From: Thermoplasmata archaeon
GTDB lineage: Archaea > Thermoplasmatota > Thermoplasmata > Lutacidiplasmatales > UBA184
Assembly (NCBI GenBank): GCA_030040915.1
Contig: JASHSI010000040.1
Location: forward strand, 1-40,393
Direction: 5' to 3'
Length of the DNA: 40,393 nt
How positions within the stretch are numbered: position 1 is the first letter of the stretch; each line of letters begins with the position of its first letter. A program made the translations under genes and the position numbers. Below are positions 3,789-28,166 of this stretch, in pieces. The notes under the pieces were generated by a model, which was not told the DNA's origin, ran no database searches, and worked only from the letters and a program-made list of their open reading frames with translations.

Positions 3789-4742
3789 TTAGACCACGGC
3801 GGCGACCGGCACGTAGATGTCGATGACCGTGACCACGAAGATCAACGTCGCCCCGTCGACCTCCTGGTTGTAGTCCTCGGTGAACGTCCCGCTCGTGTAG
3901 TTGACCGCGGTGACGATGAAATCGTCCTCGGAGGTCGACGAGCACAGCCCGGTCGAGGAGGTCCCTTTGAGGTGCCCGGCCTCGGTCGGGGTGAGCTCGT
4001 TCTGCACGGTGATCATCCCGCTCCCGTTCGCCGTGGAGGTGACGTTGGTGACCTCCGCGGGCCATCCCTGTAGGTAGGTCGTATTGCCCGCCTGGGCGAG
4101 GTTCTCGATCGTCACGGAGGTCGAGTTCGCGCTCAGGATGACCGTCTTCCACCCGTAGGTGGTGTTGTCGAACGAGGCGCCGGTGGTCGCGACCACCGTC
4201 GGATACCGCTTGGTGAACACCGGGCCCGAGATCGTCTCGAACACCGGCACCTTCACCGTGAGGGGCAGGGCTTCGATGCACGCAGAGTTCACCGGGTAGC
4301 CGAGCGCCGGGGGCACGACGATCGCGTGGGACTGGTTCCCGGGGAGGCCGACGAGACCCTGCCAGAACCCCGGGATGACCTCCGAGAAGTTCACGCCGTT
4401 CAGCGTGTACTGGCCGTTCGGGGCGCTCGGCCCCACGTACACCGGGAGCGGAGCGTACTGGCTCAGCGACCCGCGAAGACTGTACTGGAGCGCCTTCGGG
4501 TAGGTCGCGTTGTCGTAGGCGACGCTCAGGAGCGAGGTGTCGAACACCTTCCCCTGTTCGGGTCCGGAACCCAGGATCCCGATGTAGTTCACCGTGATGT
4601 TGTCGCCGACGGCGACGGTCAGGGGCGTCGGGGCCGACTTGGGGCGGTTCTTCTCGTACAGGTAGGCGCCGGTCGCCCCCCCGGCGACGAGGACGATCGC
4701 CACCAGGACGACCACGGGGATGATGGAGGCCTTCTCCGGCAT
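3789..4742 (-). CDS. Membrane-anchored FKBP-type peptidyl-prolyl cis-trans isomerase
   Basis: N-terminal hydrophobic anchor; GDNITVNYIG, GKVFDTS, VIPGFWQGLVG, VPPALGY and C-terminal DYNQEVDGATLIFVVTV motifs, with a long insertion. Confidence 0.82.
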   Translation of the reverse strand: MPEKASIIPVVVLVAIVLVAGGATGAYLYEKNRPKSAPTPLTVAVGDNITVNYIGILGSGPEQGKVFDTSLLSVAYDNATYPKALQYSLRGSLSQYAPLPVYVGPSAPNGQYTLNGVNFSEVIPGFWQGLVGLPGNQSHAIVVPPALGYPVNSACIEALPLTVKVPVFETISGPVFTKRYPTVVATTGASFDNTTYGWKTVILSANSTSVTIENLAQAGNTTYLQGWPAEVTNVTSTANGSGMITVQNELTPTEAGHLKGTSSTGLCSSTSEDDFIVTAVNYTSGTFTEDYNQEVDGATLIFVVTVIDIYVPVAAVV

Positions 4743-22420: not shown

Positions 22421-24214
22421 CTAGTCGTAGCGGTACTTCTCGACCGCCCTCCGGTAGAGGGGCTTCCAGAGAACCTCGTTCACGACGACCACGGTGAGGA
22501 CCATCGTGAACAGCGCCAGGACCATCAGCGGCAGTCCGGCCTCGGGGGGAAGGTTCAGGAAACTGGGCTCCTTGTTCCCGATGTCGATGAGCTGCCCGAT
22601 CCCGAGCGTTTGGAACGGAGACTGCCCGTTCGGGTTCTGCAGGTACTCCGCGATCACGAGGGCGTTCCAACCTCCCCCGAGCGCCGTGATCGACCCGGTG
22701 ACGAACGCCGGGAACAGGGCCGGGAGGAGGAGGCGGCGCCGGTACTCGGCGCCGGCGAGCCCGTAGGAACGGGCGGCCTCGTCGAGGTCCGGCGGCATCG
22801 ACCGGACCCCGGAGAGGAGATTGAAGAACAGGTACCAGACCATCCCGGTGAGCAGCATCAGGATCGAGGTCGCCTCCGTCCCGATCACCGGGTACAGCAC
22901 GAAAATGAACGCAGGGAACAGCGCGGTCGCCGGCACCGAGGCGACGATCTCCACGGCGGGGAGCCCGTAGCGGGAGGCCCTCGGGCTCCGGGCGATCGCC
23001 AGCGCGAGCGGGAGCGCGATCGCGAGCGAGATCGCGTACGCGGCCACGAGGCGGGCCCCGGAGAGACCGAGCGCGAGCGGGATGCTCTCGATCTGGTGGC
23101 GGACCGGAAGGTAGATCGGCCCCGTGAGGACGTGGTAGACGTCGACCCCGAGGGTGATCAGGAGGAGCCAGACCAGGACCAGGATCGTCCCGAGGGCGGC
23201 CGAGCGCGCCGCCGACTTCCAGAACGGACGGTGGCGGGCGGGTCGCCCTTGCGCGGCCCGGCTCGCGAGCGCCACGAACGGCGTGCTGAGCCGGGTGACC
23301 CCCGTGGTGAACCCCCGCCGGACGTAGCTCACGGCCCGGACGAGCGGGGCCCGTCCCTTCGGCCCGCCGGTGACGAGACCCTCGCCGCTCGGGCTCGTGT
23401 CGTACCGGTACTTCTCGGCCCACCGCCCGAGCGGCCGCCAGACCCAAATGTCCATCGCGGCGATGAGCGCGACGAGGACCGCGAGGCCGACCAGGAGCTT
23501 CGTGCCGTTGCTCTGCGCCGCGGCGTTCAACAGGTAGGTACCGATCCCCGGCAGGGCCGTCGTGCGAGATGCGGTGGAGATGAGCTCCGCCGCCACGAGG
23601 AAGTACCACCCGCCCGTCCACGAAAGGACCGAGTTGTAGACGAGCCGGTTCGTCGTTGCCGGGAGGAGGACCCGGCGGAGCCGCTGCCACCCGTGCACGT
23701 CGAACGTCTGGGCGGCCTCCTTGAGGTCGCTCGGGACCGACTTCAGGGATTCGTACACCCCGAAGACCATGTTCCAGGACATCGAGGTGAAGATGAGGAA
23801 GATCGAGGCGAGATTCGCCCCGATCGGGCTCCCCGGGGTCAGGCTGACGAACACGGCGATCGCCACGGGAAAGAACCCGAGGATCGGGACCGACTGCAGG
23901 ATGTCGAGGACCGGGATCAGGACCCGTTCGCCGGCCCGGTACGTGGCGGCGAAATAGCCGTAGACGAGCGCGAAGCCGAGGGAGAGAAGGTAGGCGATGA
24001 GCATCCGGGTGAACGAGTAGCCGAGGTCCGGGAGCGCGAGACGAAGATCGGCGGCGATCTGGGGGAGACCGGAACCGCTCGCGACCGCGGCGACGGGGAG
24101 CGCGAACGCGCCCGCCAAGAGCCCGAGCGACCAGTAGACGCTGCGGGCGCGTCGGGCTCCGCCCGCGGCGGCCGGGCCGGTCGAGAGATTCGGGTCGGGA
24201 CCGGCCCCCTGCAC
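22421..24214 (-). CDS. NitT/TauT-family ABC transporter permease (two fused TM domains)
   Basis: LDILQSVPILGFFP, WNMVF, DLKEAA and DLDEAA EAA loops, GGWNAL. GTG 24214 chosen because the ORF-track start at 24424 falls inside tRNA-Gln. Confidence 0.88.
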   Translation of the reverse strand: MQGAGPDPNLSTGPAAAGGARRARSVYWSLGLLAGAFALPVAAVASGSGLPQIAADLRLALPDLGYSFTRMLIAYLLSLGFALVYGYFAATYRAGERVLIPVLDILQSVPILGFFPVAIAVFVSLTPGSPIGANLASIFLIFTSMSWNMVFGVYESLKSVPSDLKEAAQTFDVHGWQRLRRVLLPATTNRLVYNSVLSWTGGWYFLVAAELISTASRTTALPGIGTYLLNAAAQSNGTKLLVGLAVLVALIAAMDIWVWRPLGRWAEKYRYDTSPSGEGLVTGGPKGRAPLVRAVSYVRRGFTTGVTRLSTPFVALASRAAQGRPARHRPFWKSAARSAALGTILVLVWLLLITLGVDVYHVLTGPIYLPVRHQIESIPLALGLSGARLVAAYAISLAIALPLALAIARSPRASRYGLPAVEIVASVPATALFPAFIFVLYPVIGTEATSILMLLTGMVWYLFFNLLSGVRSMPPDLDEAARSYGLAGAEYRRRLLLPALFPAFVTGSITALGGGWNALVIAEYLQNPNGQSPFQTLGIGQLIDIGNKEPSFLNLPPEAGLPLMVLALFTMVLTVVVVNEVLWKPLYRRAVEKYRYD

Positions 24215-24370
24215 CCCCGCCCCCGGCTCAGGAGCTCTCCCTGCGCCCGAGGAGAGAGGCTGGCCGCGTGGGCGACCGTTCCTCCCTATATCTGACTTCG
24301 GGCGGGCGAGCGTGCTCCGGGCACGAGTTCGGGTCGGCCGGGAGCGTGCGGGCCCGGTGACTCGGCAACG

Positions 24371-24376
24371 TTTATC
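24371..24376 (+). promoter_or_regulatory. TATA-like element for the tRNA-Gln/tRNA-Leu pair
   Basis: TTTATC about 30 nt upstream of the tRNA-Gln 5' end. Confidence 0.5.
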
Positions 24377-24402
24377 TCCCCACCTCGGCTCGACCGGGCC
24401 GT

Positions 24403-24509
24403 AGCCCCGTAGTGTAGTGGCCAATCATGCGAGACTCTGGATCTCGCGACGCAGGTTCGAACGCCCCGGGGGCCCACCTCCCTGGGGGCCGGAAATCCTG
24501 CCGGGGCTA
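24403..24509 (+). tRNA. tRNA-Gln(CTG) with a 34-nt intron at 59/60 (24462-24495)
   Basis: AGCCCCG/CGGGGCT acceptor (A1-U72, typical of archaeal Gln), anticodon arm CGAGA-CTCTGGA-TCTCG, T-stem GCAGG/CCTGC. Removing the intron restores TTCGAAT and a 73-nt tRNA; the junctions form a BHB. Confidence 0.92.
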
Positions 24510-24542
24510 CTCCGGCCCTTTCGAGCGGCTCGATATCCCATT

Positions 24543-24687
24543 GCGGGGGTGCTCCAGCTCGGCCAAACCGGTCCTCTCGAGGACCGGGGCCTCCGAGGCA
24601 GGGCTTAGGACCCTGTTGCCTAGGGCATTCGCCGGTTCAAAGGGTGGGACGGCCCCGGCCGTCCCCCGGGAACTCCGGCCCCCCGCA
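24543..24687 (+). tRNA. tRNA-Leu(TAG) with two introns: 27 nt at 21/22 (24567-24593) and 32 nt at 59/60 (24642-24673)
   Basis: GCGGGGG/CCCCCGC acceptor plus A73, anticodon arm CAGGG-CTTAGGA-CCCTG, variable arm TGCC-TAG-GGCA, T-stem GCCGG/CCGGC. Splicing gives an 86-nt tRNA with D-stem CTC/GAG and T-loop TTCAAAT. Confidence 0.9.
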
Positions 24688-24742
24688 CCTCGCCGTCGTC
24701 GATGAGCCACAGGGATCGTCGGTCCGTGGTGAAGGAGACCGT

Positions 24743-25633
24743 TTGCTCGAACCCCCCGAACTCCTCCGGCTCGAACCGGAGGCGGCCGACGAGCTCCTCG
24801 ACCGGTTGATCGCGACCGTTCCGCTGCGAAGGCCGTTCGTCGGGGTCCCGGATGCCCCCGGGACGACGGCGACGGTGTTCGGCGACACGCACGGCGACTG
24901 GCGCTCGACGCTCGCCGCGTGCACGCGCTTCCTCGCCGATCCCGGCCGCTCCTTCTTGGTGGGGCTCGGGGACTACATCGATCGGGCCCCGGCCGACTGC
25001 GGCGAAGGGTCGGTCGCGAACGCCCTCTACCTCCTCCAGCTCGCCGCCGAGTACCCCGACCGGGTCCTCCTGATCCAGGGGAACCACGAGACCCACCGGA
25101 AGATCCCGGTCCTCCCCCACGAGCTCCCGGAAGAGGTCGACCAGTTGTGGGGACCGGTGGAGGAGCGCTACTGGCGTCTCCTCGAGCTACTCGAGCGGGG
25201 CCCCCTCGCCGCGACGACGGGGAGCGGGGCGTACCTCGCCCACGGGGGATTCCCGTTGGCGCCGGGAGACGTCCCCTTCCCCCAGGAGCTCCTCGCGCCG
25301 ACCGACGATGGACTGGCCGAGGTCGTCTGGGGCGAGCCGGCGGCGAGCCGATCCCACCGGGGGTTCGTGCGGCCGTTCACCGAGGAGGAGCTCGACCGGT
25401 TCCGACGACGCAGCGGGACCTCCGTCTTCGTGCGGGGCCACGACCCGGACCTTACGGGACGGCCGATCTACCACGGGCACTGCCTGACCTTGCACACCTC
25501 GAGGCTGTACGAGCGGTTCGGCGGCGTCGTCGTCGCCCGCCTCCCGATGGGGGAGCGGGTGGAGGACTGCTCCGGGATCCAGATCGACCACCTTGAGACG
25601 GAAGGACGCAGCTACCCGGAGCCCGGCGGGTAG
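24743..25633 (+). CDS. Calcineurin-like metallophosphoesterase (PPP-type Ser/Thr phosphatase)
   Basis: GDTHG, GDYIDR, GNHE, HGG and RGHD motifs. TTG 24743 follows a GGTGAAGGAG RBS; the ORF-track start at 24644 lies inside the tRNA-Leu intron. Confidence 0.85.
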   Translation: MLEPPELLRLEPEAADELLDRLIATVPLRRPFVGVPDAPGTTATVFGDTHGDWRSTLAACTRFLADPGRSFLVGLGDYIDRAPADCGEGSVANALYLLQLAAEYPDRVLLIQGNHETHRKIPVLPHELPEEVDQLWGPVEERYWRLLELLERGPLAATTGSGAYLAHGGFPLAPGDVPFPQELLAPTDDGLAEVVWGEPAASRSHRGFVRPFTEEELDRFRRRSGTSVFVRGHDPDLTGRPIYHGHCLTLHTSRLYERFGGVVVARLPMGERVEDCSGIQIDHLETEGRSYPEPGG

Positions 25634-25655
25634 CCGGTCCCGCGTGGCCCGATCC

Positions 25656-26237
25656 CTATCGGGAGGGGCCGCCCCCGTAGACCCGTCGCTCGGCCTCCAC
25701 GATCGCGTCGGGGCCGTCGGCGCCGACGAACTCTCCGAGCGCCTTCGCGTTCACGCGGCGGAACGCCTCCCCCCCCGCGAACCCCTCGAGGAGCCGGTCC
25801 GCCTGCTCGGGGTACCCGAGGATCCGGACGCCGGCCGAGAACGCCTCGGCGGTGTTGAGCTCGCCGACCCGGCCGAAGTGCTGGGGATTCGTCGCGAGGA
25901 GCCAGGGGAGGCGGCGCCGTTCCTTGATCCGGACCAGATCGCCCGCTCCGGGGTAGCCGCCCCGGGCCCCGAACCGGTTCCACGAACAGTCGACGCCGAG
26001 GAGGCCCCCCCGCTGCGCCGACCGCCAATCGGCCGAGGAGAGGGGGAGGTCGGCGCGTGGATCGAGGAGGACCGGCGGGGGGAACAGGCGGGCGGCGCTC
26101 CCGATCGGACGGACGAGGCCGAAGCGGACGAGCCGCCGGCCCGTGCAGGCCCGGGGGCGGTCCTCGGAGGCGAGCAGGAGGAAGAGGGGGACGCCCGCGC
26201 TAGCGGTACGGTTCCGCGTGCTCCCGGAAGATCGCAT
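25656..26237 (-). CDS. tsr3: 16S rRNA aminocarboxypropyltransferase Tsr3 (DUF367)
   Basis: D.PRACTGRRL, LSSAD, VDCSW and RRLPWLLATNP..FG...ELNTAEAF motifs. Start uncertain because it overlaps the aldolase 3' end. Confidence 0.8.
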   Translation of the reverse strand: MRSSGSTRNRTASAGVPLFLLLASEDRPRACTGRRLVRFGLVRPIGSAARLFPPPVLLDPRADLPLSSADWRSAQRGGLLGVDCSWNRFGARGGYPGAGDLVRIKERRRLPWLLATNPQHFGRVGELNTAEAFSAGVRILGYPEQADRLLEGFAGGEAFRRVNAKALGEFVGADGPDAIVEAERRVYGGGPSR

Positions 26238-27171
26238 GGACCGCCTGGGTCATCTTCAGCGCGTCCTCCCGGGGGCGCTGCCAGAGGTTCCGCCCGAAGA
26301 TGATCCCGGTCGCCCCGCCGGCCATCGACTCCCGGACCTTCTCGAGGAGCTCGGGGTCCCCGACCTTCTCCCCGCCGGAGACGAGGACGAGGGCGCGCCC
26401 GGCGCTCTCCACGACCTTCCGGAAGGCGTCGACGGGGGAAAGGTCGAGGGTGTTGTACGGCGGCGGGCTCTCCTTGTCCTTCTCCGACCGGACCGGATAG
26501 TTGAGCTTCACGATGTCCGCCCCGAGCTCGAGGGCGACCCGGGCGGCGTAGTCGACCGCCCAGAGGCTCTCCTTCCCGCCCTTCTTCGCGACGGCCTCCC
26601 CCCTCGGGTACGCCCAGACGATGACGGGCAGCCCGAGGCGCTCGGCGTCCCTCCGGACCCCGCGGAACTGCTCGAAGTCCCGGTCCTGGCTTGGCGAACC
26701 GACGTAGACCGTGTAGCCGACGGCGTCGGCGCCGAGCCGGGCGGCGTCCTCGACGGTTCCGGTGAGGGGACTGAACGCTTGGGCGTCCGACGGGATCGAG
26801 GTCTTCCCGTTGAGCTTGAGGATCAGTGGCACCTCGCCGGTGTACTCCCCGAAATACTTCTCCGCGAGGCCGATGTGGAGCGCGATCGCCGAGAACCGGC
26901 CATCGCGGGCGAGGCGGAACTGGTACTCCGGGTCGAGCGCGTCCGGGTTCGAGAAGAAGTCGACCGGACCGTGCTCGAGCCCCTGGTCGATGGGGAGCAC
27001 GAGGAGGGTGCCGCCGCCCGGTCCATGGTGGTAGAGGAGGCGCTTGAGGCGCACGAGCTTGCCGAGCGACAGGCCCATCGAGGAGAGGGCGGGTCGCCGG
27101 AACGTTCTCGCCGATGGGGCGGACGACGGGCCGGAGGTCGATCCGATCGGGCGGGCGGAAGGGGCGTCCAT
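26200..27171 (-). CDS. Class I (DhnA-type) fructose-bisphosphate aldolase
   Basis: LPIDQGLEHGP, ILKLNG, LGADAVGYTVYVGS, WAYPRG, ELGADIVK, SGG and GRNLWQ motifs. Start is 27171 (TTAAA box near 27205) or 27078. Confidence 0.9.
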   Translation of the reverse strand: MDAPSARPIGSTSGPSSAPSARTFRRPALSSMGLSLGKLVRLKRLLYHHGPGGGTLLVLPIDQGLEHGPVDFFSNPDALDPEYQFRLARDGRFSAIALHIGLAEKYFGEYTGEVPLILKLNGKTSIPSDAQAFSPLTGTVEDAARLGADAVGYTVYVGSPSQDRDFEQFRGVRRDAERLGLPVIVWAYPRGEAVAKKGGKESLWAVDYAARVALELGADIVKLNYPVRSEKDKESPPPYNTLDLSPVDAFRKVVESAGRALVLVSGGEKVGDPELLEKVRESMAGGATGIIFGRNLWQRPREDALKMTQAVHAIFREHAEPYR

Positions 27172-27281
27172 CGCTCCGGTCGCCGCATCCAACGGGGCCG
27201 CTTTAAGGCTTGGTCAACGCGCGCGACGCTCCGCGGCGGCCGCGCCTTTATTCGCCGCGGCCCCCGTAGGAGAGCCCCCGG

Positions 27282-28166
27282 ATGCGGTCCCAGTTCATCG
27301 TCGGCGCGACGATCGCCGTCAACGCCGTGCTGTTCGTCGCCCTTTACGCGGTCGGCACGATCACGGGGAGCCACGCGGTCCTCTCCCAGGCGGTCTACGC
27401 GATCTCCGACCTCATCGGCGCGGTCCTGCTCGCGGGGGGGTTCGTCGCCTCCCAGCTCCCGCCGGACGACCGCCATCCGTTCGGGCGGGGGAAAGAGCGG
27501 TACTTCTGGGCGTTCACCGCCTCTCTCGTCACGTTCACGGTCGCCGGCCTCCTCGTCATCGCCGACGGGCTCCAGGCGCTCGGCCATCCCGGCAACGTGA
27601 CCGACCTCCCGTTCGCGGCGCTGATCCTCGTCCTGACCGTGGGATCGAGCCTGGTCACCCTCTACGTCACGCTCCGGGAGCTCCGCCGGGAGAACACCAC
27701 CCTCCTCTCCTTCCTCGAGTCCTCCCACCTCGGGCTCAAGATCGTCTTCTACCAGGACCTCGTCTCGATCGTCGGGGCGTTCGTCGCCCTCTCGGGGATC
27801 CTCCTCGTCGACGTCACCCACCGGGACGTCTTCGACCCGTTGGCCTCGCTCGGCGTGGGGATCCTCCTGTTCATCACCGGCCTCCTCGTCGCCGCCGAAT
27901 CGCGCGAGCTCCTCGTGGGGAAGGCGATCTCCCCGGCGATCGCCCGCACCATCCTGCAGATGGTCGAGCGGGACGCGAGGGTCCGCAGGGTCCGCGGCCT
28001 CCAGTCGATGATGCTCGGGCCGGAGGACCTCCTCGTCGCTCTTCGAGTGAACTTCCAGGACGGCCTCACCACCGACCAGATCGAGGGGGCGATCGACCAG
28101 ATCTCCGCCTCCCTGCGGGAGGCGATGCCGGCGATGCGCCACCTCCTCATCGAGCCGGAATCGTAG
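27282..28166 (+). CDS. Cation diffusion facilitator (CDF) transporter
   Basis: PPDDRHPFGRGKERYFW, QDLVS, FDPLAS and ESRELLVG motifs; C-terminal cytoplasmic domain ending IEPE. Confidence 0.9.
   Translation: MRSQFIVGATIAVNAVLFVALYAVGTITGSHAVLSQAVYAISDLIGAVLLAGGFVASQLPPDDRHPFGRGKERYFWAFTASLVTFTVAGLLVIADGLQALGHPGNVTDLPFAALILVLTVGSSLVTLYVTLRELRRENTTLLSFLESSHLGLKIVFYQDLVSIVGAFVALSGILLVDVTHRDVFDPLASLGVGILLFITGLLVAAESRELLVGKAISPAIARTILQMVERDARVRRVRGLQSMMLGPEDLLVALRVNFQDGLTTDQIEGAIDQISASLREAMPAMRHLLIEPES

Follow-up and report, generated by a model that had tools for sequence, protein, structure and literature searches.

Translation of CUA codons needs the isoacceptor tRNA-Leu(UAG), and the locus considered here raises the question of whether a Thermoplasmata genome encodes this tRNA in a gene interrupted twice, once in the D-loop and once in the T-loop. 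The locus lies within a window of 40,393 nucleotides, the whole stretch of DNA that was analysed, which belongs to a Thermoplasmata MAG of the UBA184 / Lutacidiplasmatales group, uncultured archaea of soil, with an assembly of 1.81 Mb in 181 contigs and 70.4% GC; the order Lutacidiplasmatales has been described at about 69% GC (PMC9287336). On the evidence of sequence and conservation, we judge it very likely that positions 24543-24687 form a functional tRNA-Leu(UAG) gene, whose two BHB introns would be removed by EndA and RtcB. The features of the locus and its surroundings are collected in Table 1, and each element that the original prediction had named was found where it had been placed.

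Table 1. Features of the tRNA-Leu(UAG) locus and its neighbours, with further loci bearing an intron at 59/60 (positions are those of the window, except where contigs are named)
Feature	Position	Strand	Description
TATA-like promoter element AACGTTTATC	24367..24376	+	about 28 nt upstream of tRNA-Gln; putative
tRNA-Gln(CUG) exon 1	24403..24461	+	positions 1-59
tRNA-Gln(CUG) intron	24462..24495	+	34 nt, T-loop 59/60, strict BHB: TTCG/CGGA, bulges AAC, AAT
tRNA-Gln(CUG) exon 2	24496..24509	+	positions 60-73
Gln-Leu spacer	24510..24542	+	33 nt
tRNA-Leu(UAG) gene with two introns	24543-24687	+	145 nt
tRNA-Leu(UAG) exon 1	24543..24566	+	positions 1-21: acceptor 5' strand, D-stem 5' strand, most of D-loop
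tRNA-Leu(UAG) intron 1	24567..24593	+	27 nt, D-loop 21/22, strict hBHBh'
tRNA-Leu(UAG) exon 2	24594..24641	+	positions 22-59: D-stem 3' strand, anticodon arm (TAG), long variable arm, T-stem 5' strand, T-loop to A59
tRNA-Leu(UAG) intron 2	24642..24673	+	32 nt, T-loop 59/60, BHB with A57.G mismatch in central helix
tRNA-Leu(UAG) exon 3	24674..24687	+	positions 60-73: T60, T-stem 3' strand, acceptor 3' strand, discriminator A
Metallophosphoesterase gene	24743..25633	+	Pfam PF00149, E 5.6e-15; probable start TTG 24743, not GTG 24644
Further 59/60-intron loci	G000 contigs C35, C36, C37 (two loci), C44, C48, C61, C147, C154, C179, C180

When the two introns are cut out by coordinates in a script, the three exons join into a product of 24 + 48 + 14 = 86 nt that ARAGORN calls as tRNA-Leu(tag), a call that carries no score, and the normal Leu cloverleaf that had been expected of the double excision is indeed obtained. 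In the structure drawn by ARAGORN, acceptor and anticodon stems of 7 and 5 bp are accompanied by G18G19, a long variable arm, the T-loop TTCAAAT, and discriminator A. Together with an alignment to the Leu CAA, CAG, and GAG tRNAs of the same genome, this structure identifies a class II tRNA-Leu with a long variable arm, A73, a Leu anticodon, and a 3-bp D-stem with 13/22 unpaired, features that we take to be Leu identity elements. The same alignment puts intron 1 after the D-loop sequence GGCCAA, that is, at 21/22, and is consistent with both this site and 59/60. An alternative intron 1 of 31 nt, beginning after base 14, also yields an ARAGORN Leu(tag), of 82 nt, and was rejected: it forms only three of the four central pairs and loses G18G19.

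A BHB motif is laid out as h-H-bulge-h' on its 5' strand and h'-H-bulge-h on its 3' strand, and is cut after the second base of each bulge, a rule that fits the canonical 37/38 case. Intron 1 conforms to this layout throughout. Its outer helix (h) is the 3-bp CTC (24558-60) / GAG (24595-97), its central helix GGCC (24561-64) / GGCC (24588-91), its bulges AAA (24565-67) and TCC (24592-94), and its inner stem (h') the 8-bp CCGGTCCT / AGGACCGG; a cut past the second bulge base on either side reproduces the intron limits of Table 1 exactly. The strict motif claimed for it is thus borne out in its 3-4-3 geometry, and across 23 aligned loci 100% of the central-helix cells are paired. Intron 2 takes the 5-bp T-stem as its outer helix, followed by the central helix TTCA (24636-39) / GGGA (24668-71), read U-A, U-G, C-G, A.G, by the bulges AAG and ACT, and by an h' of 2+8 bp in which the inner stem GGGACGGC / GCCGTCCC follows two G-C pairs and a 1-nt bulge. 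Here three of the four central pairs form, short of a strict 3-4-3 motif, while the bulge sizes and positions are kept; the relaxed motif with a single A:G mismatch had been correctly foreseen, and A57 stands opposite G in 22 of the 23 loci.

Both motifs recruit parts of the tRNA itself. In the precursor, D-loop positions 16-20a pair with the 3' end of intron 1 and the D-loop CUC (16-17a) pairs with GAG of the D-stem 3' strand, so that the precursor must have a pairing that replaces the mature D-stem, where the 5' strand also reads CTC. That the intron-1 motif requires the D-stem 3' strand to be freed from its mature partner counts against the reading that we favour. At intron 2, T54-C56 pair with the intron 3' end and extend the T-stem. 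Folded as a single sequence, the unspliced locus has a z-score of -2.5 with both hairpins together in the centroid, and RNAalifold, unprompted, predicts the intron-1 BHB exactly. In the mechanism that we propose, EndA would cut each 3-nt bulge past its second base, after which RtcB would ligate the three exons into the 86-nt tRNA; as the two motifs lie 48 nt apart, do not overlap, and can form together, no fixed order of removal need be assumed.

A motif of this kind proves little by itself in a genome of 70% GC. With an intron-1-grade motif defined by a 4-bp central helix, an outer helix of at least 3 bp, an inner stem of at least 8 bp, and an intron of 20-45 nt, 114 examples occur in 3.6 Mb (both strands), against 53-71 (about 64) in five block shuffles, and about 0.003 are expected in any given stretch of 145 nt. 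The case for the gene is therefore built, at the level of sequence, on the cloverleaf that excision restores together with the conservation of the locus, and not on the motif by itself.

The full 145-nt locus with both introns is present in 21 of 24 sampled same-genus genomes, as found in a search of 40 relatives; the three genomes without it have completeness values of 90%, 67%, and 80%. We aligned 23 rows, namely the window, the 21 relatives, and a further copy on contig C108 of the same assembly; one row (G019) comes from an unpublished genome, and the result is independent of it. Since all of the relatives belong to one genus, they are not independent of one another. Across these 23 loci, 82 of 86 exon columns are invariant as against 9 of 65 intron columns, and the exons average 98.6% pairwise identity, the introns 57%; only 3 of the 48 columns of exon 2 vary, and exon 3 is the same in every locus. 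Invariant exons amid variable introns and a variable spacer point to purifying selection on the exons. The introns change in a patterned way: in the precursor structure, 93.0% of cells are paired compared with 87.2% in shuffles, a value reached by none of 500 shuffles, and pairing falls to 51-57% when the partners are slid by one column. Two-sided changes occur in 13 pairs, all of them within the two intron hairpins (7 of 8 pairs in the intron 1 stem and 6 of 10 in that of intron 2).

Other families of the order and class have Leu(UAG) genes that are either uninterrupted or bear a mini-intron. The uninterrupted genes, at seven loci in seven genomes, share 68-71 of 86 positions with the spliced product. 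Mini-introns of 10-13 nt at 59/60 were found in one family (f3), in two Leu(UAG) loci and one Leu(UAA). These three loci (L023 and L033 in G028, L024 in G026) belong to a low-GC sister family, have a perfect TTCA/TGAA central helix and no inner helix, and come from genomes whose EndA is of the same two-repeat type as that described below. The compensatory intron changes, the exon conservation, and the identity to uninterrupted orthologues contradict the idea that GC-rich hairpins in an intergenic spacer have produced a cloverleaf by accident; although BHB-like motifs are as common at this GC content as the counts above indicate and the genome scan described below met many ARAGORN-accepted artefacts elsewhere, we hold such an accident to be next to impossible.

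How visible, then, is the gene to annotation software? ARAGORN, run on the unspliced window, reports only Ala, "Gln", and Leu(caa), with no Leu(UAG), and the Rfam tRNA model gives no match at the locus, either at the gathering score or at E values up to 10. With introns enabled, ARAGORN produced many calls with introns of hundreds of bases, which were disregarded. The original prediction that standard pipelines would miss the gene thus holds for these two tools and is too broad as a general statement, because tRNAscan-SE 2.0 in archaeal mode looks for non-canonical introns iteratively by default (PMC8450103). The supplement to that paper lists as newly found a 139-nt tRNA-Lys(TTT) of Ca. Methanomassiliicoccus intestinalis, so tRNAscan-SE 2.0 does detect related cases.

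The suggested search for another Leu(UAG) gene returned none besides the locus and its counterpart on C108, which has both introns. No contiguous Leu(UAG) is present in the assembly, where ARAGORN gives Leu CAG, UAA, GAG, and CAA only, and BLAST of the spliced product against the assembly yields split matches only, at 24543-24687 and on C108. This 4170-bp contig is colinear over its whole length with window positions 23391-27515 at about 70% identity and includes both tRNA genes, Gln and Leu, and their three introns; the colinearity rules out a paralogue and marks a co-binned relative, so that C108 probably derives from a related species, a piece of whose genome was binned into the MAG.

A decaying pseudogene, disrupted by hairpin insertions in a genome that reads CUA by some other route, would account for a locus that ARAGORN and Rfam do not recognise before splicing. 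It would also fit the RNA data, in which no spliced product was seen: four metatranscriptome runs, from libraries that possibly contain DNA and are unsuited to tRNAs, gave five contig pieces, all from relatives, all intron-retaining, and with no joints. Decay is nevertheless hard to reconcile with exons held nearly constant between introns and a spacer that drift (the last 30 nt of the spacer have about 44% mean ungapped identity in the 23 loci), with an assembly that offers no replacement gene, and with the recurrence of the same intron design in many isoacceptors that are essential, Asn-GTT and Asp-GTC among them. We therefore regard a pseudogene as exceedingly improbable and return to the functional gene and its setting.

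Immediately upstream lies a tRNA-Gln(CUG) gene interrupted in the same manner. Removal of its single intron gives a 73-nt tRNA-Gln(ctg) in the genome scan and ARAGORN, and its acceptor strand AGCCCCG finds its partner CGGGGCT only in the 3' end at 24496-24509. Its exons are constant and its intron variable in the 23-locus alignment, and the intron-bearing gene is matched in 73 of 74 sampled family genomes, mostly at full length. ARAGORN misdraws this tRNA, also as 73 nt, at 24403-24475 by borrowing the intron as a T-arm, and it reaches only 21.8 bits with the Rfam tRNA model. The TATA-like AACGTTTATC is kept in most of the 23 loci amid variable flanks, and the spacer between the two tRNAs contains no comparable conserved element in that alignment, which suggests one transcript; the element thus probably acts as the promoter of a dicistronic Gln-Leu precursor. 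Downstream, the longest metallophosphoesterase ORF (24644-25633, +) begins at a GTG within intron 2, which agrees with the expectation that the phosphatase ORF would be extended into the tRNA. Of 19 relatives that have the motif, 14 show their first in-frame start codon 18-44 nt past the tRNA; here TTG 24743 is the probable start.

The shared 59/60 site of the Gln and Leu genes recurs across the genome. Our scan of the assembly sought TTCRA together with a T-stem of 5 bp and an acceptor of 7 bp, made the removal of a BHB intron optional, and passed the products to ARAGORN; it yielded 334 candidate regions, 6418 variants, and 155 ARAGORN-accepted variants, from which 15 loci were kept, comprising 13 distinct genes and two C108 copies. 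Removal of a 30-35-nt intron at 59/60 restores a full-length tRNA at 12 of these loci by itself and at the other three together with a second intron. The genes concerned, at least 13, are Ser-GGA, Ser-GCT, Ser-CGA, Arg-TCG, Arg-TCT, Ala-GGC, Asp-GTC, Asn-GTT, Glu-CTC, Gly-TCC, Gln-CTG, Leu-TAG, and Lys-TTT, and such an intron is thus present in roughly a third of the tRNA genes that the scan recovered, which number about 40. Leu(UAG) is not the sole gene with two: tRNA-Lys(UUU) (G000:C147:4200-4339, +) has a D-loop intron of about 29 nt (about 4222-4250), with no clear outer helix, and a 35-nt T-loop intron (4291-4325), and both must go for a clean 76-nt cloverleaf to appear.

Several products of the scan were set aside. 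Variants called tRNA-Leu(tag) on C101 are artefacts of a tRNA-Met(cat) with a canonical 30-nt intron, and those on C4, C45, C48 (at 26752), C113, C122, C167, and C177 have long (53-122 nt), weak "introns" and are probable false positives. On both strands of G000:C1:4244-4480, two tRNA-like loci need at least one non-canonical intron; the scan solutions are ambiguous between Arg, Ser, and Pro, and ARAGORN calls one of these loci "tRNA-Pyl(cta)" with an intron.

Whether the insertions are removed by a BHB endonuclease depends on the enzyme that is available. EndA is encoded by one 353-aa ORF with two N-terminal and two catalytic endonuclease domains (G000:C167, L038:721-1779); no second splicing endonuclease was found in the genome, and the RtcB ligase is present (561 bits). 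Residues 29-338 of EndA align with the Archaeoglobus fulgidus alpha'2 enzyme over its full length (E 1.5e-25), and its catalytic Tyr, His, and Lys are matched there. The catalytic repeat aligns without gaps to the Methanocaldococcus jannaschii alpha4 enzyme (residues 8-174 against 5-171), which by sequence leaves no room for an insert of the specificity-loop type. A single two-repeat ORF without an insert thus appears to be neither of the broad-specificity architectures, (alpha-beta)2 or epsilon2, and to have neither a CSL nor an ASL loop. The protein is longer than its counterparts in A. fulgidus (305 aa) and Thermoplasma acidophilum (289 aa) by short inserts, mostly in the N-terminal non-catalytic repeat. 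In five relatives from three families, EndA is likewise encoded by one two-repeat ORF (352-364 aa), and none of the families shows an insert of its own.

According to published reviews, alpha4 and alpha'2 enzymes need strict motifs and relaxed ones are handled only by (alpha-beta)2 and epsilon2 enzymes (PMC3239211, PMC5829648, PMC6379350). Intron 2, which lacks the fourth central pair where the published rule asks a strict 3-4-3 motif of alpha'2 (PMC3239211), therefore speaks against the splicing that we favour, as does an EndA that shows no specificity-loop insert. The tension is not confined to this gene. T60 directly follows the cut in all 15 T-loop intron loci; the six loci with G57 all have C as the facing base and so a strict motif, and the nine with A57 face G in eight cases and A in one, a mismatch that sets purine against purine in all nine.

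One could argue from the non-strict status of intron 2 for an alpha'2-type enzyme (PMC3239211, PMC5829648) that the insertions are real and escape the BHB endonuclease, being either retained as extra arms or removed by another nuclease. The constancy of T60 after the cut is at odds with this, as is the fact that all 23 loci keep the 3-4-3 geometry, the positions of the bulges, and the bulge bases on the exon side, with the remainder of the intron variable. Contact between the D-loop and the T-loop at the elbow is an established part of tRNA structure, and insertions retained in both loops would break it. Retention or removal by another nuclease appears to us highly improbable, and excision by EndA is by far the better account. 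How EndA would manage the mismatch is another matter. Tentatively, and with the balance leaning somewhat against it, we suggest that the alpha'2 enzyme of this order may cut relaxed motifs outside the anticodon loop, perhaps with the T-arm as a handle, one type of 59/60 intron having spread through about a third of the family's tRNA genes beside the D-loop introns of Leu(UAG) and Lys(UUU). If true, the published rule reserving relaxed motifs for (alpha-beta)2 and epsilon2 enzymes would have an exception here.

Neither multi-intron tRNAs nor 59/60 introns, nor the blindness of ARAGORN to such genes, are new as such, having been described in Thermoproteales, ARMAN-2, and others (PMC4033280, PMC3239211, PMC8450103). 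The multiple-intron genes of Thermoproteales and others (Sugahara et al. 2008, cited in PMC4033280 and PMC8450103) resemble the Leu gene in their two non-canonical BHB introns, colinear exons, processing by EndA and a ligase, and absence from the output of general finders. They differ in that the host here is a member of the Thermoplasmata, the EndA is alpha'2-like rather than (alpha-beta)2, and the introns are concentrated at 59/60 instead of scattered. Closest in position are pre-tRNA-Cys GCA and pre-tRNA-Pro GGG of ARMAN-2, which have an intron at the same T-loop site, Pro(GGG) likewise with two introns, of strict hBHBh' form (PMC3239211). ARMAN-2, however, has a three-unit epsilon2 EndA with a specificity loop, and its Cys intron is a 13-nt relaxed hBH (PMC3239211), whereas the introns here, of 30-35 nt, form a long GC hairpin and go with a two-repeat EndA without an insert. 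Canonical 37/38 introns cut by alpha'2 enzymes (A. fulgidus 1R0V/2GJW, T. acidophilum 2OHC) have the same 3-4-3 BHB geometry; the introns of Leu(UAG) depart from them in lying in the D-loop and T-loop rather than the anticodon loop and, for intron 2, in the purine-purine mismatch of the central helix. Split and permuted tRNAs of Nanoarchaeum and Caldivirga (PMC3218864) share the BHB-dependent joining of pieces, and the Leu(UAG) gene is neither split nor permuted, its exons standing in order at one locus within 145 nt, so that trans-splicing is unneeded.

The table of multi-intron tRNAs in PMC4033280 names Crenarchaeota, Nanoarchaeum, M. kandleri, M. thermautotrophicus, Korarchaeum, and ARMAN-1/2, with no Thermoplasmata. 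Our literature search found no description of these introns in Thermoplasmata, although PDF supplements outside its reach may bear on the point. The authors who described Lutacidiplasmatales used tRNAscan-SE 2.0, and the word "intron" has no occurrence in the main text of their paper (PMC9287336).

Several consequences follow for this lineage. Without the gene at 24543-24687, the genome seems devoid of a tRNA for CUA codons. Callers of the ARAGORN type would miss or misplace the ends of about a third of the lineage's tRNA genes, which distorts the tRNA counts used for MAG quality and lets protein-gene callers push ORFs into tRNAs, as with the phosphatase start at 24644. The gene extends multi-intron tRNAs to Thermoplasmata, and the wider pattern, in which the 59/60 site is spread through many genes, the sole EndA is alpha'2-like, A57 loci are mismatched, and a sister family has mini-introns, is a more interesting lead than the single gene. 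Strict G57 loci, mismatched A57 loci, and the mini-introns of the sister family together make up a natural test set for the tolerance of alpha'2 enzymes toward non-strict BHB motifs, one that bears on the model in which enzyme architecture and intron diversity evolved jointly.
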